A DNA stretch of 60,876 bases, the filler included, from Sphacelaria rigidula (lineage: Eukaryota), in the NCBI GenBank assembly GCA_964200075.2. It is 5 parts of 5 records of this genome, joined end to end, with 100 filler letters (N's around TTAATTAATTAA, not from the genome) between each part and the next. Parts side by side here need not be neighbours in the genome. Positions count along the whole stretch, not along the records: positions 1 to 12,098 come from CAXNAA020004130.1; 4 more parts are not named here. One strand, written 5' to 3'. The notes beneath the pieces were generated by a model, which ran no database searches, was not told the DNA's origin, and was given only the letters and a program-made list of their open reading frames with translations. This document shows positions 1 to 41,620 of the stretch, in pieces. The translations under genes were made by a program, and so were the position numbers. Within the stretch, counting starts at the first letter, position 1. The number at the start of each line of letters is the position of its first letter.

Positions 1-399
1 CTCAAAAGATACAGCCCAGCAGCTGACCTAACCTATCGAGCTGACGAAACATCACAAAGTAGACACATCCTCGATATATACCGTCATGACATCGGGTTAG
101 CAAAGCGCTCACATCCGGACTCGAAATCCGAAAATACCGGGTAACGGAAGCGGATGTGATTGCTCAACAGACTGTTCGAGCGTCCTAGCAAAACGCTCAA
201 CGGTTGAGCAGTAGCCCGGGGTCGCAATTCGGAGATCAAGGAGAGTCACAAGAGAAGAAAACGAAAAACGATGATTAGAACAATGCAGACATGAACGGAA
301 AAATATCCGACATGTCAACGGTGACTGGAGTGCAACTTCCCAAGGAAGATGACCTCTCAGCAATCGGGGTAGTGCTGATCATTTCGACGATGGGTAGAC

Positions 400-1190
400 A
401 AGAAAGCACAATGCTTACACGCCGAAAACATCGTATGCACCGTTTTGTTTATAACACGAGGACGTTGAACTATTCAGGTGTCAGTGGAACCGAAGGTATC
501 CCAGAACTCGGACATCAAAAACCCAGGCGCCCGTGGACCGATCAGTGTCCCAGTGCCCAGGCATGTAGAAACAGCAGATGCATCCAGCACCAAAGTGCAA
601 CGCATCTTGTGGATTATCACATAGGACACACATATATGCCACAAAATGATACGAAGCAAGGAACATGTCGATGTTTCACTAAAGAGCACAATGCTTGCAA
701 GATAAACATCAGACCCACCGCTTTGGTACTAACGTGAGGACTTTGTCCTATACTCCGGTGTCAGTAGAACCAGAGGTATCCCAGAACCCGGGCAGAAATA
801 TCACAGGCGCCCGTGGACCAGTCGGTGTCCCAGTGCCTAGCCAGGTATACCTAATTGATGCAGCCGGTACCAAAGTGCAAAAAGCATCCCATAAAAATGT
901 ATCACTCATGCATCTATTTGACACAATACAAGAAGAAGCAAAGGTCATTGTAACCGGGTTTAGACAAAAGAGCACAATGCTCACAGGTGAAAGAAAAATA
1001 CATATATGTATCTGCAACACCGCCTTGCTACTTACCCGAGACTTAACCCTACTCAGGTGTCCGCGGAACCGAAGGCATCCCAGAACCCGGGCAGGAATAC
1101 CCCAGGCGCCCGTGGACCGATCCGTGTCCCAGTGCCCAGTCATGCATACCAGCTGATGCAACTAGCACCGCAGTGCAAATATATCTGATG
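400..1190. repeat. Tandem array of about 3 diverged ~290-bp units
   Basis: The block ggtgtc..gaacc..aggtatcccagaac..caggcgcccgtggacc..gtgtcccagtgcc recurs near 477, 757 and 1055; agcacaatgc recurs near 405, 684 and 969. Confidence 0.85.
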
Positions 1191-2599
1191 GAAATATGTC
1201 ATATATGACAGCTACATGACAGAAAAAATTATCGCCAGCCTCGGAGTTCCTTCGGCATCAGGACGGCAGTTTCCCCCCGTAGGTCTCTGACTACTCTAGC
1301 GATACGCCTTTCTTACAGTTCTACGTACTTGGAGGCTCCCTCATCAGTTGTGTTTGTTTGTCCATGTCTGTTTATTTTTCGCGGAGGGCAGTATATACCT
1401 GCTCGATCGAAGCGGACAAAGCGATGACTCGCGTGCTTTTTCTCCCTTCATTCAACCCATGTGTATTATGTACATGTATCATTTCACATTTCCACCACTT
1501 TTGTGGAGTTTTCTCTGCCAGCAAGGCATTTTCCCCCACGCTTTCTTTTGCAGCGCACTGAGAAGGCATACGAAGTATATTTTGTATTATCGATTTGCGT
1601 CACCCCCGGGAGGCCCGTACCAACCTCCCGAAGGGGAACCTTGTATACATGTATGGAGGAAAAATAAATATCACTGAACTTTGCGATGTGAATTCAAAAA
1701 CGACGCGGTGAGACAGTAATGCAGCATACATGGTGTTCCGCGTGTACCACCCAAGCGCCAGGAACTACAAGTAGCACGACAACTTGGTGATGCTACTGAG
1801 TGTGACTTCATGAGCCAGGAAAAATTAACGGAAATCTCGACTCTTCCTCATGCTTCGGTATATCACATTGTTGACTAGCCACCACTGAACGGTTATAACG
1901 CTTGATGCCGACAGAATACAGCAAAGCACACACAACAACGCTACAAAACGCAGTTTTGCTTCACATTTCAGATCTGTTCAATCAACAACTTTCCTAGTGT
2001 ATCTTTATGCCCACTCTTCTCGTCAATTAGTATGGGATGAATCTGTGGGTGCATCAGCCGCGTGGGCTGGTGTGGAGACGTAACCCGAGTGTTTCCTCCC
2101 TTGGTATCAACAACACTCGGGTCTCTCTCACGTGGAAAAAACGAGAGTTTGCAGGAAGATATCACATATTTCAGTGTCTTCCTCTGCATACTTGTGTTCG
2201 GGTGGGCGGGTGGTGTCTCAAATCGGTTCCTACTTTCCGTGCTGTTTCTCGGTGGGTAGGAATCGATGATCAGTAAAGAACTGGCGACGTGTGGCGCTCA
2301 TATATCACTCGTTCTTGACAGTCACGTGTCATAACGCCTACGGCTATATGTAGGACTTCCTGTCAAATGATCCTAGTGTATCTTTATGCCCACTCTTCTC
2401 GTCAATTAGTATTGGATGAATCTGTGGGTGCACCATCCGCGGCTGGTGTATTCACTCCGCCGGTACTCTGCTGAGTTGATCATATCGATTTTCGTTACTC
2501 GTGTAAGCTCAATCATTTGGTGACTCAGTTCATCCCTTACTCTCTCGGGCACGGTCCTTGCTGTTCTTATTCTAATTGCTGGTGTCTCTATGTGTACAT

Positions 2600-4338
2600 G
2601 GGTAACGTGAGTGTGAAGTCTTGTCTGAAATACATCCAGAAGAGCTGTTGGGTGAGTGTGTGCATGCGTTCGTCCCTGGCTTTATTTTTCCCGAAGGCAT
2701 GGTACATGGTGTTGTTGTCGACATCTATTGGCAGACTAGTCCCCGCCACTTGATCAGTTTGTTCTAAGCAGAACAGCCTAAGGACTTCGTGCAGAGCGAA
2801 CGTTTCCTTGACATTGATGTGCGCTGTCATCCATCCGGCGGGAAAGTCGGCGGCCGCTGTAAAGGCGTCGCCGGAGGGGCCTCGAACAATACCCCCCCGA
2901 TGCCAGTGAGAAGGCGTCTGTCGTGCCGTTTATGGCGATGATGTGGTGACTAGGGCTGTACCATGTCACCCCATTCATCTTGTTTCGGAGTTCCCGCCAT
3001 GTGGCTATCTCGTTTCGGAGACCGCCATTGACAGAGAGCGCTATCGTTGCTGTGATATGTTTTCCTTCTGTCTTTCTGTATATCGCGATCTGTTTGTACA
3101 TGTGGAATGTGTACAAACTGGCTGCTGGTACTGCAACCGACATGCTCGTGCACTTTCCCGCCAGCTTCTCAAGCATGGCGAACGTGATGGTTCCGGTAGC
3201 GAGGACATCGTCTAAGATGCGCTCTAACTTGACGAGCTTATCTTCGGGGACTTCAAACCGGCAATCGTCTGTGTCGCACAGAATTCCCAAGAAGACAATT
3301 TTTGTAGTGGGTTCTAGCTGACATTTGGAGATGGACATGAAGTATCCATAATGATAGAAGACTGCCAGCGCCAGGAGGGCTGCTGAGCTTGCTGCCTGTG
3401 TCTGCGTGTGAGGTGGGTCATGCTTTGTCAAGCGGACTCCCCTCAGCCAGAAATCTTCGATCTATGCCAGTACTGCTACTTGTCGGGATCGCAGGTACTG
3501 TGCCACCGCCTCGTTCAGTGTGTGGTAGATGTAGGGGGAACTGCACCAACCAAAACAGAGGACAGTCCAGACGTAATATTCGCCCTTCCACTGAAAACCG
3601 AAGTATTCCCATGTTGTGGGGTCGAGGGGCACATGATAAAAACCTGATTTGTGGTCCATCGTAACCTGGTAAGCACCTTGCCACGAGCACTGGGCCACCT
3701 TTCCTACTCCGTCCATCTTGAACGGCATATCCTTGCACATGAGGTTCAGCCAACGGCCGTCCCATATTAAGCGTGGTTTCGACGGTTCTGCTCCAAGCGG
3801 GAGAGACATGCGTGACTTGGGTTGCGCGTGAACGTCTGCTATCTCCGCCCATCGCACCGCGCAGCCTTTGTCGACAAGGTTTCTGATCTCGCAGTCGACA
3901 AACAGTTCGTGTTCTGGATTCACGTGGTTGGGTAACTCCACATCCATCAGGTCGGCGCCGTGAAAGGGGCGTCCTTGAAAACTTCTCGTCGTTGATTTGT
4001 CGACGAATGTGTGTATGTCTACACCGTTGATCCACGACAATAACAAGTCGGGTTGCATGTGGTCCTTCAGAGTAACATCTTTCCAGTGGGGACTGCCGTG
4101 CTCAGATGTCCTGGAACAAAGTCTTTCTCGTTGTATACGGGGGCTTGTGGGGCTTGGGGCGGTTCTCCTGATTCCCAGCCTTCCTGGATCTGGTTCGCAG
4201 AGGGATCCTGGATCATGCACTCGCTATGGGCTGAAGCTCGATTTCCTTGTATATCCGTTTGGTCCGTACGAAAATGTGTATGCACCGCGTTCGTACGTCT
4301 GGAACTTTCTGCCAGAGAAGCTATCAGGCCTAGTTGGT
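2600..4338 (-). pseudogene. DIRS-type reverse transcriptase / RNase H (disrupted)
   Basis: RT motifs KPRLIWDGRWLN, DHKSGFYHV and LCFGWCSSP; the catalytic motif reads *IEDF (stop at 3462-3464); KCQLEPTTKIVFLG follows. RNase H motifs TDA, HINVKETFAL and DVDN. Frameshifts near 4090 and 2895; truncated near 2600. Confidence 0.92.
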
Positions 4339-5062
4339 CTGTAGACGCGTATAGCATACAATCAAAAACAAAATCGTTGGACGGACGTGTCGTGTATGTA
4401 TAGATATTTTGGACACACCAGAAATTCACTGTTTATTTTTTTAAAGCAAGCGCTTCCACGTATCCCACTGCGCACCAGAGTCCAAGCCACGAGTGAAAGC
4501 GAGGTTCAAAGGTTTGCAGGCGGGGCATTGGGGCTGCGTTATGTCGGATGACGACGTTTTCAGATCACCCGGCAGTCATTTCATCTTCAGGGTGAACATG
4601 ACACGTCGGGGTCAACTGTAGTGGACTGGGTTACAGCGGCTTAGTATTTTTTCCAGTACACATATAGGGTACAGAGGACATAAGAAAGCTGCGCGGGGTG
4701 TGATGTTCCGAGAGGAGAGTGTGTAATGCTCGTGTGTCGTGGGTAATGGTAAAACTCCCGCTCGGGTATTCTGCAATACAGCGGTGGGTTCGGCCTGTCG
4801 CAGAACCGGGCTCCGTCATGTGTAGCGTGGTACGAATAATTCGAGACGAACTCGCCATCGGGACAACAGAGCAGCAAACAGTATTTAATTTATGTTCTTT
4901 CCATCTCTTGAAACGGTACGCAAGATATGTCTCGCCCATTAACCTATGAAACAGGACATGTGCAGGTCGGAGTCGACACGTTCCCGAGTGTCCTGCGGCG
5001 GAAGCTACCGAAACAGGGTGTGGTAACCCTGTACTATATTGACAAATCAGACTTCAATTTTA

Positions 5063-5837
5063 CTATATATATCCTCGGGGGCAATGCTTAGCGAGGTGTC
5101 CCGGTTTCGTGCATTGCCAACAGACTGTTAGCGGGCAGTAAACGTATGAGTGGTTGGCGGATTGACCCGCGTCCGTGCACTTTTGGCACTGAGGCGGTCC
5201 TCCGGAGCCCCGGCCACTGCCTCTCCCGGGATCTCCTCGGCCTCCTCCTCTGCCGCCGCCGCAGGTGTTGCGTTGTCGCCTCCCTCCCCGCCCCCCCGCT
5301 GCGTAGGGTTCACTGGGGCTGTAGTGGTTGGTGGCGTCAGAAAATGGCGCCTGCTGGTAGGACAGGCGTGGATATGTGGGGGGCGGCTGTAGATGGTAGG
5401 GTGAGGGGTATTGGGTCGGCGGGCTCAGCAGAGCCCTGGACCCTTCCCCCCGCACGAATGTCTGGGCACCAACCCGGAACGGTCTCCAGGGTAGTGTGCT
5501 TACCGCCCATGGACGTCGCTATATCCTTGATATCTGCCTGGAGAGCCTTGTTTGCGGCCGGCGAGCGCTGGGAGGAGGTGGCACCAAACCGTTTGTTGAG
5601 GAGCAGGGCAGTTAACGCCGGTGAACGCCGCGCGAGACTCTCCTCAACATCGTTGCGGAGGTTCCGCACCCATTCCATCTCGCGACGGAGCGAGGGCTGC
5701 CCCTCGGCCAACCGCTCCATCGCAGCTAGGTGGGCGAACATGGTGTCGAGTTGATCCATGACTCGCGTGAGGGGCGTGAAGCGTGCATCCTTAAGAAGGT
5801 GAGCGTCCGCCGCTGCTTGGCTCATCTTTAATTTAAA
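5063..5837 (-). pseudogene. Gag-like ORF1, 3' part, with CCHC zinc knuckle
   Basis: ORFs 5337-5825 and 5063-5455 are joined by a frameshift near the C-run at ~5445. RGG-rich tract, then CQKC..H..C and CWQCTKPGHLAKHC (Cx2Cx4Hx4C). Confidence 0.8.
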
Positions 5838-8056
5838 CTACAGTGTTGGGGATACAGCATGGGACGGTCCGGGCGAAAGGGGTCGTGCGGCTGTTGTTGT
5901 GCTGTCGGACTCTCAGGCTGGATCGGTCTCGCTTTCACGTAGTAGAAGTGGTGGGCTGGTGTCCTCACAAACCGCCTGTACAAATGCTGAGTACTGCGCA
6001 TGAGCTCTGTCACACGGATTTCGTGTGAAGTGGCTGACTGGACTGGTACGAAACACGTCTGAGCGGGCGGTATGTATGATGTGGGACTGTTATGTATTGA
6101 GTCGGGGTTAAGCGTACTTCAGCTTGTAGGGTTTCGGGCAAAATATAGGGCTCTGTGGTGCTGCGTGGGTACAAGCGAGCGTGTGCTGTGCTTCGCGTCA
6201 TCCCGCGTGTACTGCTACGCCCCCCCCTGTACCGTGTGGGCGGTTAAGAACCGGGCTGGCGTGTGTTTGTGCCGGTCCCGGGCTGTGCTCGACAGGCGGC
6301 TGAAGGCCAGGCGGGCTTGTGCAGTGCCGCGATTCGGTGGCACTGGTACTGGGCTACGCTCCGAAGTGTACTGTATCGGCGGCAAAGGGGCGAGCCGAGT
6401 GAGCGTGTACTATGTGGTACGGGCTGTACGGGCGTCCACGTCGCGTCATCCGCACGTGTACTGTGCTAACGCCCCCACCTGTGCTGTGTGGGCGTCGAAA
6501 GACTGGGTGGACGTGTGCTTGTGCCGGCCCCACTCTGTACTCTACAGGTGGCTGAAAGCCATGGGGACTTGTGCGGTGCCGCATCTCGTCGGCACTTGTA
6601 CTGTACTGTGCTTCCAAGTGTACTGTATCGGCGGCAAAGGGCCGAGCCGGATGGGCGTACTGTGCTGGAAGTACTGTACGGGCGACGGGGGTCGGGTGGG
6701 TGTGAACTGTGCAGCATCCGAATCGATACTGTACTGGCCCGAATCTGTACTGGATGGGCGACGGCAAACTGGACGTATACGGAGCCTCCCGCGCCTGCCG
6801 TGTACTTGTAATGGTGTACCCATCTGTGCTATCTGGGCTGCGCGTGTACGGTGCTATATGTACTGTACAGTCCACAAGGGGTCGGGCGGGCGTGAACTGT
6901 CTTGCATCGGAAACGATGCTGTACTGGCCGAAATCGAGATTAGATGGGTGGCAGCAAGTCGGGTGGGCGTGTACGGCGCACCCCTATGCATTTTGTTTTT
7001 GGTTTGTTTTTTTCGGGGCGGGGGCGGGGGCGGGGGCGGGGGGGTGGGGGGGCGGGGGAGAACGAAGCAACAGCGATGTTGTCGCGAGCCGCGGTTTCAA
7101 GGCCGGTGCCTAAGTGCTGCGGTGTAGGCATCTGTACTGACAAGAGACACAGCGTGTGCTTACCGTAGCGTTCGTGCGCTGTGAAAGTTGCCGGTGGGCT
7201 ATTAGACATGTGAAGACGGGCCGGGATCAATTACCGGGGAAGTACTGAGGTCAAGTAGCTGCTAGTCAGCAATGTGAGCGCCTCCCAGCGTATTACTATG
7301 TGATACATGCCCAGGTAAAAGATATCGTGATCCGAATGGGGTTCTGCGTGCGAGGGTCATGGAGAGCACGGGAGCTCCTGGGGTGGCCTCGTGAGGAAGG
7401 AACAGTGCGTGCTCAGTCAATAGCTACTGGCTGGCAGTACAACCAAGAGGATGTATGAAACAGGTTACGGGTGTGTGGGGCTGTACGTGCGTGCGGAAAG
7501 AAAAGAGAGAACCGCTGTCGCAGGAGCTGAGATCCGGTAACATGCGTGTAGGATAGTGAGTGTGCTGAGTGCACGATGTCGCGAGTAGAAGTGGGTTGAG
7601 CACACTGTACTACAGACGTGCAGGTGTGTTGTCTCAGGGTTCTCGTGTTCCCGTACAAAGGTTGGGCACCATGCTACCTTGGGCTGTCGGCTTGCGGTGT
7701 AGTTGTGCTGTGCGTATTACTTGTGCGGGTTTGCGGGAAGATATACGTGCAGCTACATAGATATCAAAGTATCATAGTGTACGTACTGTAATTTGGTGTG
7801 AAGTGTGCGGAGAAATAGAGCTACACCTATTTTTCAGTACAACACCGTGCTGACTGTAGTTTTGCGTGAGCTGGGCAAGGGCATAGAGCTGCACCTATAT
7901 CACAGTATAATGGTGTACTGACTCTAATTTGATAGGACTGCTTTTAGCCCATGCATGTGGTTGGTTGTGGGATAGTGTGACGCTATTCCTACGGCTGGGA
8001 GGCCTCGAATGTACTGTACTGAGCGTTCGTGCTGGAAAGCAAATGGGGAATCTCAC
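5838..8056 (-). other. Putative phase-0 spliceosomal intron inside retroelement ORF1
   Basis: Donor CAG|GTGAGA at 8056 and acceptor ctgtag|TTT at 5838; splicing gives in-frame RIHPRRQ|FKLKMSQAAADAHLL. The interior is repetitive (duplication ~6170-6440 vs ~6440-6680). Confidence 0.55.
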
Positions 8057-8292
8057 CTGCCGCCGGGGGTGAATCCGTGTAAGCAATCGTACCTCGTCGC
8101 TGTCCTCCTCCTCCTCTGCCGAAGCGGCGCCAGCTGCGCTTCTGTCTGGCTTGCCATGTGTGCTGTCTCCCGCATCAGAGAGCTCCGATCCCGAAAATTA
8201 TTGGCGTTTTGGTGGAGGGTCGGTGAGGTCCACCGGGACATCGGGTTGGGACGTTGGTCGCGGTGGCAGCAGAGGGGGGGATGGTAGCGGTG

Positions 8293-9849
8293 CACACGTG
8301 GACAAATAGCACCCTGTGGGGCACGTCTACAAGGTTCAGGGAAACTGTGCAGTGTTTCTCGCGGGGATCTGGCTGTATTTTTTTTTGCTCCCCACAGGAC
8401 GCTTCACAGGGATCAGGAAAACTGTGCAGTGTTTCTCGCGGGGATTTGAGTGTAGGGTATCATTGTGGAGTTATCCTACGATAGGGGGGGGGGGTATTTC
8501 GGGCCATTTGTTGCTCGAAATTTCGAGTCAGATCGTCGTTTAAAGCAGCAACGAACTGTTGTTCGAACAAGCTTGTTGTGAAACAGTAACGCTCATCCAT
8601 ACTGCCTTACACCGTTTGGAACCAAATACAAGCGCAACGCAAGTATGGAAGGATGTCTGACACACTTATGAGCCTCTTTCTTCGTGCAACCGAATCCCCC
8701 CCCCTCCTATCGTAGGATGACTCTTTCTGCCACGCAGAGTGCTTCACAGGGTTTCGTCACTTCGAGTAGAATTCATCGCTGTTAATACGCTGTGCTGCCT
8801 GTACATAGCACGCATACAATATACTCTACACAGCATGGGCATGGTACTGGCAGAAAATAACGGTGGAGGAGTGGCAGGGGTGAGAATTGAATTCAGGTTT
8901 TCGTGAACGGAGGTACGTCAGGTTGCCGATTGAGCCACCCAAATTGATGAGAACAGCGACATGATTTTGTGCTTCTAATAACTATCAAACGAAAAACTCT
9001 CTCAACAAAAGCATACTGGGTTGAGTGATTTTGGTAGACTGTGGACCACGGGGTTTTCGAAGCAATGCGCATTCATAATATGCGAGGTATACCCAACTGT
9101 CTCAGTTTCCACGTCTTGAGCGAAAGCTTAGCATCTACGCTCGCAGGCGTGTGCACATGCACTCGATCGTAATCAGTGTGTCGGATCTCCATTCAGCAAA
9201 AGCTGTCGAGAATAATTCATCCTTCAGCCCATGTGCATGGATCGGGGGGCGAAAGGATGAATTGTTTTCAACATTTTTTTCTGCTTGTCGGATCCCATAT
9301 GCTGATAACGGTGCAGTATGCGGGATATGCCCAGCTGACGCTGTTCGCAATATATATCTTTTCCCCCAATCTCCGGATGAAATGGAGGGCAAAGTGACGA
9401 TATATTTCGAGCTTCTTCTGCTGTTTAAATTCCTTATCTGCGAGTGTGCATGGGATTTGCGCAGCAGAAGAAGAAGCTGTACGAAATAGATTAATTTTTT
9501 CGCCGATTATATATTGGGCGAAAAAATGATCTATTTCGTACAGCTTCTTCTGCCGTTCGAAATACATTTTTTTTGCCCAAATAAATTGGGCGAAAAAAGG
9601 ATCTGTTTTGAATATCTTCTCCTGCTGTCCGAGATAAATAAATTTACAGATTTTGTACCAAAATAATTTGGAATTTTCCAAATTGGGAATGCCTCTTCAC
9701 AGGGTTGCTTGCAGGGTTTCGACAAAAACGCTATGCAAAATGCTATTACATGTACTAGGGTTTGCAAATAATGCTACACAGGGGTTTTCACAAAGACTGT
9801 GGAGAACCCTGTGCAGCTCGCCCTACAGGGTGCTATTTGTCCACGTGTG
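8293..9849. mobile_element. Non-autonomous TIR element, CACAC termini, 2-bp TSD (CACTA/CMC-like)
   Basis: ~30-bp TIR cacacgtggacaaatagcaccctgt(g/a)gggc at both ends; TG on both flanks; homologous copy in the opposite orientation at 32549-33819. Confidence 0.85.
8468..8723. mobile_element. MITE with GAG..CTC termini nested in the CACAC element
   Basis: Inverted ends gagttatcctacgatagg / cctatcgtaggatgactc; this segment is absent from the homologous copy near 33670. No clear TSD. Confidence 0.7.
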
Positions 9850-10921
9850 TGGTGATGGTGTGGAGGGTGGGGGGAACGCGCCTGGGAGCACGAGGAAGTT
9901 GCCCACTTTTTTCAGGCCGCCGTGGGTGGTTTTGTCGGTAGCCCACAGGTGGTCCACCGATGCTTCCAGTAAGACGCGGGTCTGAAGGTCCCCTTGAGCG
10001 TCGGGGGGGGAAGCTTGCTGCCATGGAAGGTTGCAGTATCGTCGCTATGTTGACGGATATGGACGGTGCTAGTATTTCCGCACATACGCACATGAGTTGG
10101 TTCATGGGCGTTTCGTCCGCCGTGAGGCCCAACACCGCGATTACCTTTTTGGCGTTGATGATAGAGACGCCCCCCCGCACCTCATACACAAGCGCGTGGA
10201 GGGCGTCGACGGAGGGTATCTCCGCCGGGGCGGACATGTCCAACGTGTCAGGGACCATAGCTGGGTATTGGGCGGTTGGATTGTAGGAGTTTGGAGGTAG
10301 TGTGCGAAAGGAGAGGGCGAGCCCACGTTCAGCGGGGCGAGCCTTCGCCGTCGGAGCTATCTCAAATCGGTTCCTACTTTCCGTGCTGTTTCTCTGTGGG
10401 TAGGAATCGATGACCAGTAAAGAACTGGCGACGTGTGGCGCTCATATATCACTCGTTCTTGACAGTCCCGTGTCATAATGCCTACGGCTATATGTAGGGC
10501 TTCCTGTCAAATGATGCGTGCCCAATCTTTATTTTTGTGTAAATCAGAATATATTGTCTGCGATATCCGCGTCTACGTCTAGGTGTGTGCGCTGTGCGGT
10601 CATGTACTCGCCTCTATAACAGCATCTCCACAGTCATTTTAGTACAACAATGATTCAGAAATATTGACACGAGTATGACACATATGCACACAGAACACTT
10701 TGGAGTATGACACATATGTCGGGTGAAATAAGTGGTTCAACCGGCTGCAAAACCGATCAGTTTACCAGTTGCACCAGTCAAGTGTAACTGGTCAGTTCAA
10801 CTGGCAGCCAGTTCACAACTCTACCGGAACGTGTTGTCCATAGCAGGATTTGGCTGCGAAGATAGTGTCCCCATCTAACCCAACCCAACCCTACCCTACC
10901 TAACTCAACCTACCCGTGCAG

Positions 10922-11695
10922 GAGCGATCTGGTTCTTCAAGGGAACGGACGACGTCGAGGCAAGCAAGGACGTGGACGGGCGCTGCACGGGAAACATGAT
11001 CAAGGACAACTACGTCGACGGTGCTGCCACCGGGGTGTATATGAAGTCGTGCGACGAAAACGAGCTGATTTCCAACACCTTCGTGAATACCGATGAAAAT
11101 TATTGGGAGGACAACGAAGGCCTCCTGTGGAAAGTGAGTGTGTACATGTGTGTGTGAGAGAGAGAGAGGCGAGTGATTTTCTGTACTTCTATCTTCGTTT
11201 GTTTGTTTGTTTGTTTGTTTGTTTGCCTGTATTTCGACCTTGTTGTCTAGGATATTCCCGCTCCCCTTTCCCTGCTGGAAAACATGTTTCGAGCAATCAT
11301 AGTTCACAAGTATCGGTTGGTCTCGTCGAATTTCGAGAAACAACAAAGCGCGAATTTCGGAACAACCGAAGGCCCATGTAATTCCTATGCGCGTACTATT
11401 GCTGCAGCACACAACCCCCTTTGTCCCTTCCCCCTCCGAGCGAATTTCGGAACAACTAAAGGTCCATCAAATACGTATGAGCGTACCACTTAGCACACAA
11501 CGTCCTTTACCCCATGTGCCCCCCTTCTCGACACCCACATCACACCATCTGTTCTCCTTTCTGCGCCGTATATTTTCTATTCAGGACAATGATGTGCACT
11601 CGGGCTTCGACATGGAGATGTCTGATACGTGTCTTGACCCTGAATCCGATCTTAATCAAATCGACGAAGCAGGCGGTACCCAGAAAACGTGTTGA
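10922..11695 (+). CDS. Mannuronan C-5-epimerase-like (parallel beta-helix) gene, last two exons 10922-11133 and 11585-11695
   Basis: Canonical splice sites cag|GA...AAA|gtgagt and tcag|GAC...TGA. The peptide AIWFFKGTDDVEASKDVDGRCTGNMIKDNYVDGAATGVYMKSCDENELISNTF resembles, from memory, C-termini of brown algal ManC5-epimerases. Confidence 0.65.
11147..11225. repeat. Intronic microsatellites (TG)n(GA)n and (GTTT)n
   Basis: Directly visible. Confidence 0.9.
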
Positions 11696-12098
11696 AAAAG
11701 ATAGAACACCGGTTCGAGCACAATAATACGCGCACGTGCTGGTGGGGTCGAGGGCGGGCGGAGGGAGGGGGGCACGAGGCGGGGGGAGGGTCGGGAACCA
11801 ACGTGGGAATACAAATATTCATTTACTCTACGCATGTGTTCTATGTGTTTTACGTGTTCCATGTGTCCTATAAGTTCCGTTCTGTTTCTTGTTGACCTGA
11901 TCGTTAATTGTTATCTCTCACTGTTTTGTCTATACCCCGAATGAAATAGCGGGGCGTGTGCGGGGAAATCCACACGTACTCTGAAATCGACGATCAAAGT
12001 CAACATCTTGGAATGCGGTGGAGGAGGGGGGGGGGGGGGGGGGGACTCATTTTTTGTTTGTCTTTGTGTTTTTACCCTCGACCCCCCCTCCCTTTAGA

Positions 12099-12198: not shown

Positions 12199-12307
12199 CC
12201 CGCAAAAGCGCAAAACAAAAAGCGGTAACCTGGTTGCCTAGCTTACGTAGTGAGTGGCGTGTTTCATAGCGTCATCGCCAAGCGACGCCAACCTCATCGG
12301 GGGTGGA

Positions 12308-12400
12308 GAGGGGGGGGGGGCGTACTCATATGTTGCTTGCCTTAGTCGTGTGACCATTGACCACGCATCCCTTTCGAGACGGAGCACCGTAGTGGGGGGA
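12308..12400 (-). mobile_element. 3' end fragment of a high-copy LINE-like repeat
   Basis: Reverse complement of gctccgtctcgaaagggatgcgtggtcaatggtc..actaaggcaagcaac..atgagtacgccccc; also at 29261-29332, ~49230-49302 and ~60805-60876. Confidence 0.7.
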
Positions 12401-12634: not shown

Positions 12635-15600
12635 CGAAGCCATAATCTGCCAAGACACGATGACGATTTTTGCCGAGTTGAGGGGCACCCACTCTTTGAA
12701 GCGACTAAGGCGGCCTTGACTTTGATTCGCACGGCCGGACTCCTTGGAAACCAAGAACAGGATAAGAACAAGCACCAGAATAGCAACTAACGGTATGACC
12801 ACCGCCGCGAACACGACCTGCCTCGAACGTGAGCACTTACTGCATCGGAATGCCAGCGATTCAGCGTAGCCATCGCTGCACACGGCGCAATCTGCTCGCG
12901 CACAGCAGACAACGGGGTGGTTTAAGCGGGATGAATGGTTCGATTGCGAAGAAAGGGCGTGCAGAATGGGTTTCTCCATAAATGGCGTTAACAGCGATCA
13001 ACGGTGGAGCGGCAGCGCGCATTTTGTTAGAAAAAAACGGAAGGGCTAGGTTATGTTTCCTGTCGTAAAGAACTGGTCGTCTACCTGGCGTGTAATGTAT
13101 GTAGACTTAGTTTGTGGAATTTTCTGTACACGCGTGCACTTTTGCTTTTCATAACGAAGACAAGCCACTGAAAACAAAGCAGTGGGCACTCACATGCTCC
13201 CTCGTATCCGGTGTTACAGTTTCCGGCAGTTCCCGTCTCCGCCTCCATGCAGGCGTCTTTGTGGTAGCACTCAAGCACATCTCTGCTGGAGTTGGTGGTT
13301 CGCCAATACCCCGAATCCATGACAAGGGTTGCGAGGGTTCGGCCTCCTCCCTTGCTGGTTGTGTGTTCAATTGCGCTCTTACATACGGGGGCGTCCTTCT
13401 CTGTGAGGTTGCATGTGCCCTGACATTCTGAGCAACCATTGCATACCGCTTCGTAGTGACCACCCTGCACGTGCATCAACCATGAACGCGTCTCAAGTGA
13501 GTTGTGGCCAGCTATCGGCAGGGTGCCGTCGTTGTTAAGGGGGGACTGACTGCCCGCAGCTCCTGCCGGCATTGTAGAATTGTTGTAAGTACTGTCAATA
13601 CAAGGAACACTTTTTACCACACGTGACCATGACTTCACAGAGCTCACAGAACGCCGATCGGTAGTACAAGGCCTTCAAGAAAATGTTCGCTCGCTGAATG
13701 TGTGCTACACATAGCATTAATAACACTCGGTGCCAAGTAAGGCATATGGTGAACAATCTTCCGCGCACGCACGAACAACTTGCCTCATCGAAGTCGAGAT
13801 ATGTCCCCTCGCCGCAAATGAAAACATTGCCCGAAAAGGTGCAATTCGTCATCTCCGATGTAAAGCCAATCGTGGCCACAGCTGGACCTCCTGCTTGGCC
13901 TGCCTGGTTTTCGTGGAACTGACACCCAGTGATCGTGGCAAAACCAGCCAGTCGCAAGGCACCCCCTTCCGGTGCCCTGTTCTGCACAAAAGTGGAGTTC
14001 CTTATCACGTCTTTTCCCGCCGCGCTTTCCATTGCTCCACCGGAGAACGATGCATTGTTCCCTTCGAACCAACAATCCTCATAGACTGTTGCATGGTCCG
14101 CCTCTTCTTCGGTGAGAGTCGTTCCACTGCCCGTGGCATATATCGCCCCGCCTACCTGAGCTTCATTGCCCGTGAAACTTACACCGGTAAACCTCGGGCC
14201 GATGCCAACACCCGCCAAAAACACCGCACCACCGGTCGATCCGGCTGAGTTGTTCGTGAAGGCAACCTTCACCAGCCCGAAGTTGATGAATGCTGATCCA
14301 CCCAACATCAATGCGCCACCGTACGATCCGCAAGAGTTCTTTTCGAAAGTGGTGACGCCGTAAAATGATATTGTGGCCCGACCGATGCGCCCAGTCATAG
14401 AGGCATACACCGCTCCTCCGTCTGAAAAAGCCCTATTGTTTGCCATCCGAGTAATTCCGTTGCACACAACCACGGAGTTTGCTCCTATGGCCAGAGCACC
14501 CCCGTCGTCCGCGAAGTTATCGACGAAATAGGTATTTCCCGTAAACGATAGATTGGTCCAGTCAGTCACACGTACACCGCCCCCGTCGTGAACCGCCCTG
14601 TTTTTGGCGATAGTCGTTTCATCGCCTTCCCACGATACGGAAGAATTATCTGCTGCAAGCACAGCTCCCCCGTCCTCCTTGGTAGCATTGTTGCCGGCCA
14701 AGAGAGTCTTGCTGGTCCACGATAGGATAGAAGACGAGCGCAAGCACACTCCGCCCCCCGAATGTGCCTCGTTTAGCGTGATATTGGTTTCGCCATTCCA
14801 TGAGATGGACGACTCACTCTTGCCAAAAATAGCTCCTCCGCACGTGCAGGCGTAGTTCTGGTCGAACTTTGTCTTCGAAGACCAGGACGCATGGGATTCT
14901 TCGACCACGGATAACGCCCCACCACGGCAATCCCCACCGCCATCAGCCTTGTTGTTGAAGAAGACCGTCTGTCCTTCTCCCTTCCAAGACACTGTTGAGC
15001 CGCCACACACATAGACAGCACCACCATCCACACTAGCCACGTTACCGCTGAAGGTGCTGTCGCCTGTCCACGACGCATCTCCGGCACCATCGACGTACAA
15101 CGCACCCCCGTGTTCGGAAGCAAAGTTATCCTTGAAAGATGTACGGTTGAAGGTTGCAACAGCCCCCCTTCCGACGAACACGGCCCCACCAAGAACAGAA
15201 GCGCCATTGCTTAGCTCAAGGTCACTAATATGCAGCACCCCCCCAACGACGCTGAAGAGCTGAGTGTCCCCTTGGCCGTCTGCTATAGCTGGGCCGAAAG
15301 AGGTACTTGCCCTTACCGTGAGAGTGGTGCCGTTTGTCACCCAAATGGTATCAGTCACGGTCACTTCTCCTCTCCACTCCACGCTGTAGTTTCCCTTAGA
15401 GCATACGATAGACCTGGCGAGGTTTGTTGCCCCGTTGCTGTTTGCAACGACCCAGTCTTTGGAAACTGCGTCTGTATCACAGCAATCACCGCCGTCATAC
15501 CTGCAGACCGAGACATCGTTCTTGGAATCACATACATCATCCCCGATTGTCGCCTCGTCACCAGTACAATCGTCCAATTGGGCAGCGCGGTCTCCGACAC

Positions 15601-15670
15601 ATGAGGTTGCGCACAATGCCCACAGTAGAAACGCACTTCGCGCAGAGAGGAGTGACAATCCTTTCATCAT
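12635..15670 (-). CDS. Polymorphic-membrane-protein-like (GGA/FxxN repeat) surface protein with LNR-like domain; exons 15670-13784, 13464-13194, 12891-12635; 3' end missing
   Basis: Signal-like N-terminus; LNR-like CTGDEATIGDDVCDSKNDVSVCRYDGGDCC; many FxxN..GGA(I/L/V) repeats; Cys-rich GYWR..CNTGYEGAYCAVC..C..C; hydrophobic TM segment; KIVIVSWQI. Exon phases are consistent; the first intron has a GC donor. Confidence 0.88.
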
Positions 15671-17024
15671 GCCAATCCCTCCTCTCTGAAATCCTAAAAC
15701 AGGGTGGCAAACCGACGAAAGCAGGAAGACAGGGGAGACGATCGTCATCTCGCATACGATAGGATTAAACACGATGCCTTGCGCTCAACAGTTCCTCACC
15801 CGGCTAAACGTTTGAGTAAAATATACTTCTTCTCCTCAGCCCTTCACAAATCAATGTTCTCTCAACCGCGCGAGAAGTGGGTTTCACGCAATGGCATCAG
15901 GACACCGCAACCAAGTGATTTCCCCAAGAAACACAATTCCTCGTAAGCGTACCTCTTCAATACTTGTACACGCCTTTGCTCGGATTTGAGGGACCGAAGT
16001 CCTCTTGGTGTTGCGCAGTTGTGGTGTGCACCATGTTTGTTCATCAAATTATAGATGTTGTTCGCCTTTGAACACTTTAATCGGCCCCGAACAGGCTCGA
16101 CTTTTGTGAAAAGCCTCTGGTTCGTGAAGAACTAGCATGACTTCTGAGATTAATGTTCAAACGATTTCAATAAAAAACTGTTCTCTTGTAGATCTCGAGC
16201 GGAGCGATACCTGATCCTGGTTTACAGCAGTATACGGGATTCGCTCACGTATGATGTCATTTTGAAGTCTTGCGCGTTAATTCACTCGATGCTTTATTCA
16301 ACTAAGTGATCCCAACCAAGCTGGTGTCTCAGCTACGCATCGCCATGAGCTAAACCTACCATAACACTTTCGTCCTTGACCTGCGGTCTGCGTTACCTCA
16401 CTATGAGTAATACATGGGCTTTCGAACAAAGGCATGTTGGCGCTTCTATATTTCCAGTTGGAGGCCATAGCATTGATTCCATGACCATGACCTAAGGAAA
16501 TAAAGCCGGGAAAACCTACAACCTTTTAACGAAAAATCGGCTCGTGCGAAGGTTGGTCATCAACGCTTTCCGGTCAACTTCATAAAAAATATGAACAAAA
16601 CATGCGCGTCGCAGCGCGTACGCTTAAGGATCCGGGCCATTCAAATCTAGGAAAATGCGGGCATGCGGAGAATCCCCATGGATCCCATGTCATGGTCGTT
16701 AGCTTTCCCTGCGTCAATGGCAAATCACCTGTTTTTGGTGCGTTGTCGCTGAAATGCTTGCTTCAAACGCGGTTTACTACGGTATTGGTTCCTCAAGGAT
16801 CATACAGCCTACAACCTGGAGCCCTAGGAACATATTTGTTTCCCACAGGTCGGCAAGCAAACGTGAGGACAATGCCTATCAAAATCAGAATCCGAAAAGG
16901 TCTACTTGCTTGCATACAGCGCCCGTGCCTGAAGGGCCAAGAGGGATGGCGCTTGTCCGGGCACGGTATCGGTCGCTGTGCGGTCCGCCTAAGCGGCGGG
17001 GCTGCATCATCAGACGAAAGTGGC

Positions 17025-21056: not shown

Positions 21057-22605
21057 TTTTTTTGTTTGCTATTATTATCAGGAGCAGCCTTAGAGAATGA
21101 AAAAGTAAAAGTAACGCCGCACGCGGCGATGGAAATATAGCGCATTGCACTGCCGAATATACCACCGTAGGGAGCGGTGCTATACTATGCTACTGTCTGT
21201 TGTTGGACTTGCAGGGTGATGCGCGGCACTGATTTTATTTGTCGCACATTTAATGATCCCCGAGAGAGCTATAAAGTTGTTGGTGTATTCAGTCATTATC
21301 CAACAGAAAGACAGACGTACCCGAGGTAAAAAAATGGGAATGCTCGCTGAGAAAAAAACGGTGGAATAATAAAAAAAAAACGAACGGATTTGATTCAAGT
21401 GTCGCACATTAACTGATCAGTGATCCCCATATGTCGAGAAACCCAGCTGTGGTCATAACATGGGCCCACGGGCACCCAACCGGATTTCGTAACTCGATTT
21501 TATTTCATTCATTGATTGAATCATTGTCACGCATTAACTAATCCGCGGGGGATCAGCAATGCTCATGAAAAAACGATTGGCGTGCCCAGGATAAAACAAA
21601 ACGGAGACAATCGCTGGAGGAAAGTGGATGGGACAGAAACGTAGAACAGAGTAGACTAAAAAAAAAGTCAGAGACGAGAAACTAGAAATAACCGGCCTCT
21701 GCGCGTTGGGCTCCAGATGGGAAGGTTTTGCGCAAAGCACATGCAATCTTACTCAATCGAAAAAAGAAGAGCCTCGGGAACAGATTGCGGCTTATTTACT
21801 GCGGCTACACTATTTTTTGGTATGAGCTGTCACCCATGAATTCTACGGAAGCTAGGCACCAGACTGCGACTGGCATTATACATAAACCAGAAGGAAACAA
21901 ACACAGACACACTAATCACACACTATTGATATTAATAGAGAGATGAGGCGAGAAAGACAAGAGCCCGAACGGCATGAACCGTAAAACAAAATAGAGACAT
22001 GGAAAAAGAAAACCACCGAAACGACAGCAAGTAGAAAAGGGGAGGGAAATGAACAGAGAATATCTAGAGCTGGGGTCACCATAAAGGTCACACTTCTTCG
22101 ACACACGATACTGTAACTTTTCCACTTTTCCGTATCAGCCCCACCTGAGTACATCGCTGTGAAGTGCAGACTAATCTGCTGATGCACGCGCTGCCGCAAG
22201 AACGAAAAAAACTGCACTGCATAATATGTAACGACAGCCATAAAGCTACTACAGAAGCGGCATCATGGCTTCAGGCAAAAAGGCCGTGCGCAAATGGTAG
22301 TCGCACTCGCATTCTAGCTCGCAAACTGTTCTATCAATACTGAATTACCATCACATTACCGCATGGTGGGTATTGCCCTGTTCTTTTGTGATGGAGGAGT
22401 GTACTACACCGTATTTACATCCCAGGGTACCACGGCACGGCACTGTACTTGAAAAATGATTCACTGCCTGCCTGTTCTTCGATTTTACTGTTGGTCGATA
22501 ACCCACCCCTTCAGAAAATGACGCTCCGTGTACAGAACTTTTCACAGGTCGGACGAGTCATTACTCGTTTAGACGAGTGCACTCGTGGGTGTTTTTCCAA
22601 AAACA

Positions 22606-22900
22606 CAACGAGCATGGCTCGTGTGCTCGAGTCATTACTTTTTTTACAACAAGCAATGACTCGAGTGCTCGCCCTATTAATTTTTTCCACAACGAGCAAT
22701 GACTCGAGTGCTTACCCTATTATTTTGTTACCACAACGAGCAATGACTCGAGTGCTTGCCCTAATATTTTGTTACCACAACGAGCAATGACTCGAGTGCT
22801 CGCCCTAATATTTTGTTACCACAACGAGCAATGACTCGAGTGCTCGCCCTATATTTTTTTCCCACAATGAGCAATGACTCGAGTGCTCGTGCTCGAGTCA
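22606..22900. repeat. Tandem minisatellite, ~43-bp unit, about 6 copies
   Basis: Unit caacgagcaatgactcgagtgctcgccctaatattttgttacca. Confidence 0.92.
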
Positions 22901-24611: not shown

Positions 24612-25041
24612 AAGGCGGGATTTTACAAATTGGGGGTGGATCTTCATTGAGGATGAGAACCCGTAGAATTGAAATCTTCGTATCCACACCAAATCTTCGG
24701 AATATAGTCCCACTCCTTCACCTACCGGTAGCTATTGACAAGTACTACACGACATACATTTTGTGGGGTGGGGGATCCTGATAATCGACATGTTGGGGTC
24801 GTACGTAAAGAAACGGTTTTGGGAAATTGAGATGATCCGATCAGATCGACGAAATTCCCCAAAAATATTTTTTCACCTAGGACCCCAACACCTTTGGTAT
24901 CGAGATCCGAATATGTATGGCGTGCAGTTGTTGTCAATAGCTACCATATTTCGAAGATTTGGTGTGGATACGAATATTTAATTCTCCGGGTTCTTCATCC
25001 TCAATAAAAAAGTCCATTGTCAATTTGTAAAATCCCGTCTT
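24612..25041. mobile_element. Palindromic MITE (same family as 40368-40777)
   Basis: cgggattttacaaattg...caatttgtaaaatcccg, with long internal inverted arms (tcgtatccacaccaaatcttcg / cgaagatttggtgtggatacga). Confidence 0.8.
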
Positions 25042-25106
25042 ATTTTCTTGAATGAACATAGAGCGCGCACCTACCATCATCACCTGAGCTGCACTCTCTC
25101 AATCAC

Positions 25107-28100: not shown

Positions 28101-31100
28101 GCTAATCGAGACGCTGAACATCGCGTTGAGAGCCCACCACGCACCTTCGGGAAGCGGGACGAGTGTTGACAGTATACATGCTTTTCCACTCTTCGCCTCA
28201 CCCGGTTGAGCGCCAAGCGTTTTGATGGCGTGATTCGTTTGCGAGAAGCATCATCATTTACCACCCATGCCCCAGATTGAAGTTCCACTTGCCTCACTCA
28301 ACCAGAGAGGTCAGTTGCTTGAGCATAGGCACAACACTCCCATAAAACAAGAAGAAATATCAGTCGAAACGGGATGGAAACGCCAATCATACCCCATCAG
28401 TCATCTACTCATACAGTTTATCTTCGTCGTGCTCTACGTCCCTTCCTGTCCTCGGGACGCGTCCGTAGACCCAAGAGATCAACGCCTCTGTCCGCCAGTA
28501 CCCACATGACATTTCAATACCGGGGATGGGGTCAGTACTCCCGCACCTCGACGATCCTAGTCGAAGCTTTGTAGCTACCGCGCCCTCACGCGGAAGCCAG
28601 GTTCTGCCCAAACGGGCCGCATCTGTCAGGATTCACACCCACGAACTTCCACCCCGAACAGGCCGTTGATGTATCAGTTCGACCGCCGCGGCAACGCACA
28701 ATTATATAAGGTGAACTTCACATCAAACGTGTACCTCATGACCCACTGTGCAGCTTCCCTCGCATGACAGGAACTGCAGATCCCACAAACGGCAAGATCC
28801 CCCGGCAGAACCCGAAGCTATCAGGCTAAAATGACGAGACACCACGACGCAGTTGATGTCCGAGGAGTGAGCTCCGTCCACCTGATATGTGCACGGTCGC
28901 AAACGTGATTCGGGCAACGATCCTGCTGGTATATTTCCTCTCCTCCAAACGCCCGGTGTATGAGAACGATACGGCGGTATGGATGAATACACCATTTCTT
29001 GGAACACCCGTTGCTGGATTACGTTTCATACGACAATATGTACGGGCGTAGTTGGTTGTTGTATATAAGTGCGTGTCTGAATCTTCGTAGAATCTACGGA
29101 TTCCGTGCTGGCTTGGGCGGCACCAAATTCCTCGTACTATCGAAGAGGTACGAAGAGAAACGATAATATCTACGCGCTCAAGGACAATGAAGTCTACTTA
29201 CAGTTGGTTGCATGATTTGATTGATTGTCGCACTTTAGCTGACCCCCCAGGGGTCCAGCCGCTCCGTCTCGAAAGGGATGCGTGGTCAATGGTCAAATGA
29301 CTAAGGCAAGCAACAAATGAGTACGCCCCCCCCCAGGGGTCCAGCCGCGGTTTCATGATAAAATCTACGCGCTCTAGGACAATGAAGTCTACTTACAGTT
29401 GGTTGCATGTTTGTAGTACTTATGTTCTTAGTCTGTATTTCCAATTTTAGAATATTTTTCTTAGCAGGACAAAGTTCGATGTCGTAGATTGCAAAGGATT
29501 TGATGCAGGTGCACCGGGACCGGTCCGGCAATGTAAAGCATCGGTCTACTCGTTGTGTTCATTCTTCGACGCCTAAGCCATACCGAAATGATCCTCAATC
29601 CTAAATACAACACTCGATCATGAATAGCCGGCTCATCGAAGCACCCCTCTCGTGTACCGCCGTCACCCCAGGTTTCGATCACACCTTCCGTAGAAGAGGT
29701 GGGTCCCCTTCCCTGGGAATTTCGTCGTAGACACGCAGGGATCGATCCCAGCCCCCGGAAACAACCACCTGACAACGGCATTTAGCATACAGAGCCACTC
29801 ATGGTTGAGGTAACGTAGCCCATGAGATATAGTAACGTAGCGCATTGTCCGGCTCATTCAAAGAATAGCCTATTTCCAGCCGCTGGGCCACGGTGATCTG
29901 ACTGGTGCGTGTCAAAACATATTCAGGCGGACAAGGGATGCTACTTCCCAGCAGATACGGTAATATCCGCTGTTTTCCTCGGGGGTATCTAGGTGTCGTC
30001 CTCGAAAGCATGGGGACGCAAGCAGCAAAGGGAACTTTGGAGAACGTTGACGCGGCTTGGCAGTACTGATCCAATCCGCGATAGCAAAACGTAAGGCAAG
30101 TAAGGCGAGGGGAGATAAGATGATCTGGTCGAAATACAGACATGTCCGTAAAAGGGGGAGGGGTCAAGAGCGTGACGAAAAAAAGGAGGGGGGGAGACGT
30201 CGCGCGTCACTATCGACCACTGCGCGCGTGGCGTAGTCAGCGGCGTACAATAATCAGGGCTGATCTTGGGCAACCATCGGACGGGTACAAAGCGGTATAT
30301 CATGTCCTCTGGGGGGCTTGCAGCGCCCGCGTGCAACCACGATTGGTAATCCCGAAATCTGGTCGACTCTAAAATCGTGCCAATGAAAATCATGAGAGAT
30401 ATGTAGTGTTATACCTGGTCCTCGGCGACGTAGGCGAGACCGCTGACTGGACCCTTATGCCGCGGGGTCATGCTTCGAATGTGAATACCCTGCGAGCATT
30501 GACGATAGTGCACCGCAATGGCGGGGTTCAAGTGTATGTGTTTTTGTGTCCTGCAAGCTAAGGTATCACAGATCATATCGGTGAATTTGAGCACAGATCC
30601 ACATACCGTAGCGTGACGTAACGCTCGCCGTCTGCGTTATGTACAAATCTACTCTGCAACACACAATTGACCAACTTAAGCATGCTCTTCGGTGACCATT
30701 TTGCAAAACCTTTGTCCATCTTGACGTGTCGAGAGGATCATCACCCAGCGACGGCTTTTTCCTCAGTACTGTCGTAACCGCAACCTAGCCCTGTTCCTAG
30801 TCCTTCCCGGAGCAATGCTACGGAAGGGGTGCACTTTTAGCGCAAAATCTTGTCTAGTTCAGGGGCCCCTAACGATTCTAGATTCAGAAGCATATGGGGC
30901 AGGGAATCCCCGTCTGCAAATTCATTCGGGATACCCCTATTACAGCACATTGGAATAGTAATCCTGGCGTACTCTCACATATTTCATAAGTTGTGCTTTG
31001 GATGAGATCAAGGGCTCCTGACACTTCTAACTTCAGAAAATATGTATGCACCCCTACCGTAGCATCACACCCCGTCATCCCGTCTCAATCGCGATGTATA

Positions 31101-39989: not shown

Positions 39990-41620
39990 TGAGATTTTAT
40001 GTACACCGGTGCTTCGAAGGCATGTACAAGGACCGTCGGGCCATGACCCCCGACGAATTGCTAGATGCTGTTAAGCAGTATGCCGGGTACACCACAACCG
40101 GCGGCAAGTATGACACTACGCGGGCTGCAACAGACCTTCATAGGGTTCTTACTATGCCACAAAGCAGCGGAACATTCATCAAGGATCGTGCGATGATGGT
40201 CAATTCATCGATGGAAAAGGCTTTCGCAGAAAATCTCTCACGGTGCAAGCCATGTACCGTGCGGAGGACAGGGGCTGGTTGCCAGGCCCGGCCGAGTCGG
40301 TTCCCATACCTTTGGTAGACAGGATTTCGCCTCCGGAATTCAAGGCGTATTTTAGAAGTGTACTAACAACACGGGATTTTACAAATGAGGGATGGATCTT
40401 TTATTGGGGATGAGAAACCTGGAGAATTCAAATCTTCATATCCATGCCAAATCTTCAAAATATGGTTCCATTTCTTCACCTACTGATAGCTATTGACAAC
40501 TGCTACACGCCATATAGATTTGGATATCAATCACCGAAATGTTGGGGTCCTCGGTCAAAAACCAATTTCGGAACCATTTTGGCGTCCGTTCGGACCCCAA
40601 CGTTTCGGTTATCGAAATCCAAATCTCTATGGCGTGTAGCAGTTGTCAATAGCTATCAGTAGGTGAAGAAATAGAACCATGCTTCGAAGATTTGGTGTGG
40701 ATACGAAGATTTAAATTCTCCGGGTTTCTCATCATCCCCAATAAAAGATCCATCCCCAATTTGTAAGACCCCGTGTTTAACGTATGTATGTTGACGGCTG
40801 GAAAAAGAATCCGACAGTGGTGTTCAACAAAATATTTGATGCCGCCGACCAGTGAAAATTTATTGAGGCACATGGCCGGCACGATTCTGCGGCAAGTGCA
40901 GGTAGTGCGCGCCGCAAACAGCAAAACTGACGAAAACAGCAGCCGTCTTCGCGAGCGTCGTCCACTCGCGCGTGTCACGACTGCGGCGACACCGGACAAG
41001 TGGTCAAGGATTGCCTCAAGCCTCGCGCTCAAGGCGCTGCTCACGGAAATACGCGAGATTCACCAAGACCTCGAGGCGGTCGTCACGGTGAACGGGACAG
41101 TGCCAACCAGGGACGTGGGCGCGGCGGCCGCGGTAGCAAGTAATCGGCGGCGGATGGTGGTTCCCCCGCGGCTGTTTCTTCGGCTACATCATCAGGTGGT
41201 GGTGACTCTGGATCTTATGGTTCGTCCGTAGCGGGGCGGACAGTGTACGGGGGAAATGCAAATACTTCGGTGGGGAGTGCGGGAGCGAATAGCTCGCAAC
41301 CCCTCGGCCAGGCAGGATCCGTGCCTGGTGCATCTCCTACTGCTGTGATGGCTGTAACAGCGCCGTCTACATATTCGGCGACGTGGTCTGGGCGGACCGA
41401 CAATTCTCAGTTATCGATATCAAGTGCTGGAGCGGAGCGCCAGCGTCAGATGACTCTTGGTACCGACCACGGTTCTTTGGCAGGCGTGGTACCTGTCGAT
41501 TGCGAGGCTGAATGCTTACCCGCAGATCTTTCCTTGACTGGTTCCGTAGGTTCGTTCATGGCCTGCGATATTCTGGATTCTGGGTCCGCGCTCACGTCAA
41601 TCGGTGTGGGGTCGCTAGAA
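39990..41620 (+). pseudogene. LTR-retrotransposon gag and aspartic protease remnant
   Basis: Degenerate knuckle CHDCGDTGQVVKDC near 40973, an RGG tract, and protease motif ILDSGSALTSI near 41570; multiple stops; interrupted by a MITE. Confidence 0.65.
40368..40777. mobile_element. Palindromic MITE with 4-bp TSD TAAC
   Basis: taac|aacacggg...cccgtgtt|taac; the arms are complementary over most of their length. Confidence 0.85.

Follow-up and report, generated by a model that had tools for sequence, protein, structure and literature searches.

Retrotransposons copy themselves via RNA, so that any intron in their coding sequence would be expected to disappear unless the RNA that is translated and the RNA that is copied are kept apart. 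Retroviruses express env by splicing while the intron is kept in the replicating form, and the Ogre long terminal repeat (LTR) retrotransposons of legumes carry an intron between domains of pol. Spliced subgenomic Gag RNA is described for Ty1/copia elements, namely BARE (abstract of PMC3735527) and Arabidopsis EVD and its relatives (abstract of PMC5580714). Penelope-like elements keep introns after retrotransposition, and the relevant passages of PMC8557442 regard this retention as an oddity of theirs; the introns of the cases cited there are 75-398 bp long and are located in the 5' untranslated region over an internal promoter. Among tyrosine-recombinase-type retroelements, 15 Ngaro-like and 5 PAT-like families are given for Ectocarpus in a part of PMC12477816. 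The locus analyzed here belongs to a stretch of 60,876 nucleotides, filler included, from Sphacelaria rigidula (assembly GCA_964200075.2), which consists of five joined parts of five records and is referred to as the window. Its first part (positions 1 to 12,098, record CAXNAA020004130.1) contains on the minus strand a damaged copy of a retrotransposon with split direct repeats, whose first open reading frame (ORF1) is interrupted by the interval 5838-8056. With a probability of roughly 0.8, this interval is a genuine GT-AG spliceosomal intron in the first ORF of a brown-algal split-direct-repeat retrotransposon family. It looks as if the interval persists in the genomic copies of the family and is cut out, precisely at its GT...AG ends, from what appears to be the main RNA.

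On the minus strand, exon 1 of ORF1 extends to 8057 with the letters ...cggcggcag, and the adjoining gtgaga places the donor GT at 8056-8055 (CAG/GTGAGA). The 3' end of the interval reads ...ccccaacactgtag (...aacactgtag, with the cut after ctgtag), the acceptor AG occupies 5839-5838, and the downstream frame opens at 5837 with the residues F K L K M S Q. Pyrimidines account for 65% of the 37 bases preceding the acceptor. The GT...AG interval between the two open frames has a size of 2,219 bp and a GC content of 0.563, its removal joins the frames in phase 0, and both splice-site dinucleotides are intact in the window copy. BLAST and a repeat search detected modules of ~250 bp (6193-6434 and 6441-6684, 79% alike) and of ~190 bp (6657-6743 and 6846-6932) within the interval, which also contains a (GGGGCG)n microsatellite at 7015-7058; Tandem Repeats Finder recovered the GGGGCG run only, both kinds of module being too diverged for this program. 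The sense ORFs of the interval had no Pfam match, and neither a terminal inverted repeat (TIR) nor a target-site duplication (TSD) was found when both were looked for at the interval ends; the sole inverted pair is internal, comprises 18 nt and is 78% complementary.

The same junction was found in a related protein. An exhaustive search of 1.84 billion proteins with the exon 2 frame as query returned three matches, the best of which, P0076 (E = 1.4e-64, 80% identical, 358 amino acids), is an NCBI gene model named "unnamed protein product" from a 9,098-bp contig of S. rigidula. Aligned to the window by tblastn, amino acids 1-136 of P0076 correspond to 10258-9850, amino acids 137-214 to 8290-8057, and the remainder follows from 5837 onward; P0076 thus skips a nested TIR element, described below, and exactly the interval 5838-8056. 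It crosses the junction with the residues ...RIYPRRQ/FELKMSQ..., amino acids 214/215 matching 8057/5837 with the frame kept, starts at the ATG at 10258, lacks the nested element and has a sense codon at the position where the window copy carries an in-frame TAA (8200-8198). In a search with P0076, the E value threshold of 0.001 was satisfied by 2 of 8000 scored candidates, and one further relative was obtained, P0073, which also stems from S. rigidula. The exon 1 part of P0073 (amino acids 185-266 in the tblastn alignment) ends at 8057 with the same last residue and the same donor, after which the protein runs on in the N-terminal part of pol, equivalent to 4339-3998. A shorter protein, P0077 (110 amino acids, from a 528-bp contig), was aligned by tblastn to 5906-5556 with 44% identity and extends into the 3' end of the interval. 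A word-indexed protein search with the exon 2 ORF gave 281 candidates, none at an E value of 0.001 within 89-284 amino acids, and a comparison of P0076 with metagenome contigs gave 596 pattern matches, none of which was confirmed. According to passages of bioRxiv 10.1101/2024.02.19.579948, the introns in the gene models of the species set treated there were built solely from aligned transcripts and proteins, and we infer that the models of P0076 and P0073 stem from that annotation project. Since no outside protein homolog of ORF1 was detected in the protein searches with the exon 2 frame and P0076, annotation by transcript and protein alignment makes a transcript the likely source of the modeled intron.

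Sequencing runs provided a further view of the junction and of the interval. A run search listed ten runs, none of which is recorded as RNA, and four of them were aligned at 80% likeness; the alignment listing covered 15 of 363 run joints and 12 of 254 "letters between" rows. Three of the four runs (X1, X2, and X3) are DNA-like, with 499-939 million letters and contigs of up to 283 kb, whereas the fourth (X6), whose kind was guessed to be RNA, has 75 million letters in 306 thousand records. A contig of X6 with a depth of 98.2 and an open frame connects 5833 with 8057, the window letters 5834-5837 being replaced by four others. In this run, depth was 33.9-123.6 in the five bins of exon 2, 139.1 at the end of exon 1 (7977-8157) and 157-185 at its start (9968-10300), as compared to 3.06-15.3 in the 11 bins of 5986-7976 within the interval. 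The sole contig among those listed for X6 that leads from the interval into exon 2 (record 25) had a depth of 10. Depth in the center of the nested TIR element was 24-39 in X6, as opposed to 51,521-181,877 in X1; the low level of this high-copy sequence fits RNA and not DNA, and X6 is probably an RNA run, as judged from its guessed kind and its depth profile.

The DNA-like runs suggested that the interval occurs in many copies of the family. In X1, the depths of the interval bins (1530-4775) and of the exon bins (2097-5154) were of the same order, with X2 and X3 giving a similar picture. Contigs that are exact copies of the window locus had depths of 70 in X1 and 29 in X2, so that many diverged copies appear to carry the interval. 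Sibling contigs bridge the donor boundary in X1 (record 7), X2 (record 16), and X3 (records 22 and 23), and one sibling contig bridges the acceptor boundary (X2, record 12). The intron contigs were 84-89% and most exon contigs 83-91% like the window, with 95% for X3 record 22 across the donor boundary; within the interval, some siblings have a 55-bp gap (7495-7551) and others one additional unit of a repeat (from 6874 back to 6759). A first-pass annotation of this locus, made from the sequence of the window, had proposed a donor and an acceptor that join two frames in phase 0, flanking a repetitive interval with no convincing sense ORF and no TIR or TSD. The junction recurs in P0076 and in the X6 contig, with P0073 sharing the donor, and the description of the interval held as well. 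Retention of the interval by siblings, which that annotation had proposed as a check, is borne out by the exon-like depth in X1, X2, and X3 and by the boundary-bridging contigs, and molecules joining 8057 to 5837 exist in a run taken as RNA from its guessed kind and depth profile.

A true nested insertion is present elsewhere in the window copy. Contigs from siblings of the retroelement break off precisely at 8292 and 9849 (X3 records 22 and 24), and P0076 likewise misses the sequence in between, so that the nested insertion at this locus is 8293-9848 and not the interval. The inserted sequence is a non-autonomous TIR element of 1.56 kb, which is private to the window copy and splits exon 1. 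It is 78% identical to a sibling with inverted ends at 32548-33820, and the inverted ends of both copies start with ...CACACGTGG. The trinucleotide CAC flanks the element on both sides and is a possible 3-bp target duplication, and a 150-bp part of the element (8467-8614) recurs at 56515-56658 with 75% identity. With a depth of 1e5-1e6 in the DNA-like runs, as compared to ~70 for the exact single-copy contig in X1, the TIR element ranks among the most abundant repeats of the genome. The bin matching the recurring 150-bp part (8520-8700) had the highest depth of the stretch examined in all four runs. A nested insertion had also been considered as an explanation for the interval itself and was rejected, because the interval lacks TIR and TSD and occurs in siblings at exon-like depth.

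The retroelement is delimited by terminal repeats, which were identified by a BLAST comparison of the window with itself. The 5' terminal repeat A1 (10360-10515, minus strand) is 96.8% identical over 156 bp, in direct orientation, to 2216-2371. The 3' terminal repeat block (1992-2449, minus strand) consists of B1 (2371-2449), A2 (2216-2371), a 142-bp spacer, and B2 (1992-2073), with B1 and B2 being 92.7% identical over 82 bp. The order on the minus strand thus is A1 ... B1-A2-B2, an arrangement of split direct repeats whose pattern is described for Ngaro, PAT-like, and VIPER elements in passages of PMC6681497. On the basis of these repeats, the element is provisionally assigned to the DIRS order, with a PAT/Ngaro-type layout.

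ORF1 occupies three blocks on the minus strand. The first part of exon 1 (9849-10258) begins with the ATG at 10258-10256 and has a frameshift near 10000, around which the tblastn match of P0076 passes from frame -3 (amino acids 1-89, 10258-9992) to frame -1 (amino acids 85-136, 10005-9850). The second part (8057-8292) contains the in-frame TAA mentioned above and ends at the splice donor. Exon 2, the Gag-like part (5063-5837), has an ATG at 5825-5823, a frameshift near 5455, and a stop codon at 5063-5065, and amino acids 215-358 of P0076 switch here from the frame of 5337-5837 to that of 5063-5518. At ~5455-5510, a G run differs in length by one base between P0076 and the window; a second small intron at this frame switch was rejected, as no GT/AG pair restores the frame. 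A CCHC knuckle is located at ~5078-5125, its C-X2-C-X4-H-X4-C spacing being visible in the exon 2 translation, with a Pfam zf-CCHC score (E = 0.037, 14.6 bits) below the cutoff of 20.8. Pfam revealed no capsid-like fold or family above noise for the ORF1 pieces, P0076, or P0073, and the ESM Atlas query with P0076 gave an own model with a predicted local distance difference test (pLDDT) value of 0.39, no usable feature match, and structural rows that were all under the bar. The designation of ORF1 as Gag-like is based on its position and on one CCHC knuckle.

Downstream of ORF1, the pol region encoding reverse transcriptase (RT) and RNase H (2603-4339, minus strand) was recognized by Pfam RVT_1 (E = 5.5e-07) and by tblastn of P0001, P0005, and P0073. 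It carries frameshifts near 4095 and 2890 as well as an in-frame stop at 3462-3464, a position occupied by tryptophan in relatives, and it ends at approximately amino acid 557 of the 741-amino-acid relatives. The RT query found 75 relatives with an E value of 1e-5 or better among 8000 scored candidates, with at most 60% identity over the aligned parts; the three that were named are from Ectocarpus, Undaria, and Sphacelaria. Neither a DDE integrase (rve) nor an aspartic protease (RVP) was found in the sense frames at E values up to 1, and the C-terminal ~180 amino acids of P0001 and P0005 matched no Pfam family. Searches of the whole window with Rfam at gathering scores and with a tRNA scan gave 0 hits each. 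When set against P0076, P0073, and P0001, the defects of the window copy comprise the frameshifts, the TAA, the in-frame stop in pol, the nested element, and the truncated pol. Within its family, this copy is dead, with internal damage and a truncated 3' end, and its intron is a fossil.

Several observations weigh against a spliceosomal intron or against parts of this interpretation. When 10 GT sites from the open stretch of the upstream frame were combined with 10 AG sites in 5837-5701, 43 of the 100 pairs were in frame, so that the window by itself picks no pair. The donor 9-mer CAGGTGAGA occurs once in the window, and at least one copy was present in 28 of 100 shuffles. The pairing is thus not above chance in the window sequence, and it is outside evidence alone that confirms the junction. 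In addition, the acceptor AG represents the last two letters of an in-frame TAG that bounds the downstream frame, and with an ATG only four codons past the acceptor, exon 2 can be read as a free-standing ORF. P0076 and P0073 are known here as protein models, whose loci may or may not contain the interval, and P0077 would fit an unspliced sibling and adds nothing for splicing. The joint in X6 is known from one "letters between" row that gives no flank lengths, the RNA status of this run is a guess, with no run listed as RNA on record, and contig depth reflects copy number or expression poorly. Judged from the joints and rows listed, the joined form may also occur in the DNA-like runs. As regards classification, the A2-B2 separation of 142 bp departs from the textbook split-repeat layout. 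A Pfam scan, with stops read as X, of only the three sense frames of 1900-10600 had RVT_1 as its sole match and revealed no tyrosine recombinase, methyltransferase-like domain, or protease; the tyrosine recombinase gene may have been lost here, the copy ending after RNase H.

Among the alternatives, the one that survives best assumes that the joined form exists as DNA and not, or not only, as RNA. Intron-less siblings, generated by reverse transcription of spliced RNA or by precise deletion, would then be the source of both the X6 contig and P0076. This possibility draws on the guessed kind of X6, on the fact that the DNA-like runs were judged from the 15 of 363 joints listed, and on P0076 being known as a protein model. 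It is nevertheless improbable, as X6 covers the interval at a 10-fold lower depth than the exons, has little of the TIR element center relative to the exons, which is the opposite of X1-X3, and is far smaller than the DNA-like runs. Moreover, if a deletion had its limits at precisely GT and AG in phase 0, this alone would indicate splicing. Even less can be said for the possibility that exon 1 and exon 2 are separate ORFs, in which case the Gag-like ORF would start from the ATG at 5825, perhaps with a promoter in the interval, and the junction would be minor or cryptic. The location of this ATG right behind the in-frame stop and the long, repetitive, non-coding, spacer-like character of the interval would suit such an arrangement, but the joined contig in X6 has a depth of 98.2 versus 10 for the listed contig connecting the interval to exon 2, the same donor occurs in two gene models, and the frame is maintained over the junction in P0076. 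That no intron exists at all, with the GT...AG pairing due to chance and the interval being a nested insertion or spacer in one copy, is very improbable in spite of the pair and shuffle counts given above, because donor 8057 is used by three independent sequences, two of which (P0076 and the X6 contig) connect it with 5837, and because the interval shows exon-like depth in three DNA-like runs, is bridged at both ends by sibling contigs, and has neither TIR nor TSD.

A genuine intron therefore remains the preferred explanation. The junction was observed, as were an interval that is present in DNA and a depletion of this interval in X6. On this basis, the spliced RNA would be the mRNA of a two-part ORF1 protein, composed of an N-terminal part of ~214 amino acids encoded by exon 1 and a Gag-like part encoded by exon 2 that ends in the CCHC knuckle. 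As the intron persists in genomic copies, reverse transcription would have to start from the unspliced RNA, and the findings fit the suggestion of the first-pass annotation that unspliced RNA serves as replication template. A more far-reaching version, which is possible but doubtful, is that a single donor at 8057 serves two acceptors, one at the Gag-like exon (5837, as used in P0076) and one at the equivalent of 4339 in pol (as in P0073, where the Gag-like exon is skipped). The products would be an N-domain-Gag and an N-domain-Pol protein, with unspliced RNA as the sole reverse-transcribed form. The P0073 form could be due to alternative splicing or could represent an internally deleted sibling. 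Use of the P0073 acceptor by the window copy was rejected, as the bases before 4339 are CA and not AG and the junction is impossible in phase here. A retrovirus-like splicing programme of this kind was not found described for tyrosine-recombinase-type retroelements and may be new to them.

Several other features of the window lie outside the retroelement. A 729-amino-acid open frame on the minus strand (13598-15784) is rich in Chlamydia polymorphic-membrane-protein repeats (PF02415, E = 8.4e-23) and probably is a host exon that encodes part of a beta-helix protein, either secreted or located at the cell surface. A further repeat family comprises two ~3-kb repeats in inverted orientation (41634-44796 and 51067-54468), which are 82-90% identical, and related pieces at 30810-31068 and 45306-45527. 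A repeat of ~75-80 bp is present in four copies in both orientations, which are 88-96% alike (12300-12390, 29261-29334, 49225-49303, and 60796-60876). The region 22604-22889 is a tandem array with a period of about 43 bp, visible as a ladder of self-matches. Finally, the regions 24612-25044 and 40365-40774 have pieces of ~100-145 bp in common, in both orientations and 82-85% alike, which suggests small palindromic or foldback repeats.

In the open-access main texts searched, no account of a naturally occurring intron was found for any element of the DIRS order, and the statement of the first-pass annotation that intron-containing YR retroelements are reported from a few lineages found no counterpart there. 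The word "intron" has 0 occurrences in the reviews PMC3266345 and PMC3783388, and the Dictyostelium papers PMC7192593 and PMC5633606 mention, in the passages concerned, engineered marker introns only. The word does occur in PMC12130899 and PMC8226300, whose passages containing element names (tyrosine recombinase, kangaroo, DIRS, PAT-like) give no intron for any element of this order. Introns of this kind may already be covered by the family notes in the supplement of PMC12477816. If a large intron has to be taken out for ORF1 and yet persists in many genomic copies, the logic of separate RNAs would extend to the poorly understood DIRS-order elements, and the intron would serve as a natural marker of the RNA form that these elements reverse-transcribe. 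For the annotation of brown-algal genomes, it would be a warning that errors can arise when retrotransposon genes are modeled by the "longest ORF".

The element resembles the PAT-like and Ngaro-like families in its A1 ... B1-A2-B2 repeats, in the succession of a Gag-like ORF1 and RT/RNase H, and in its brown-algal host, but differs from them by an ORF1 split by a 2.2-kb intron, by the 142-bp A2-B2 spacer, and by the lack of a tyrosine recombinase in this copy. With Ogre it shares an intron that interrupts retrotransposon coding sequence and persists in the genomic copies; Ogre, however, is an LTR element of the Ty3-gypsy type, and its intron is in pol and not in a Gag-like ORF. Penelope-like elements, as characterized in the passages cited at the outset, likewise keep a spliceosomal intron in genomic copies of a retroelement, whereas the intron found here has a size of 2.2 kb and interrupts a coding frame, and the type of RT and the integration machinery differ as well. 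A parallel in terms of RNA would be offered by BARE and EVD with their two RNA pools, one unspliced and copied into DNA and the other spliced and translated, so that the intron survives because the unspliced RNA is the template. In those elements, splicing removes coding sequence (protease/pol) and thereby raises the output of Gag, whereas in the S. rigidula element the stretch removed is non-coding and splicing would be needed to produce ORF1 at all.

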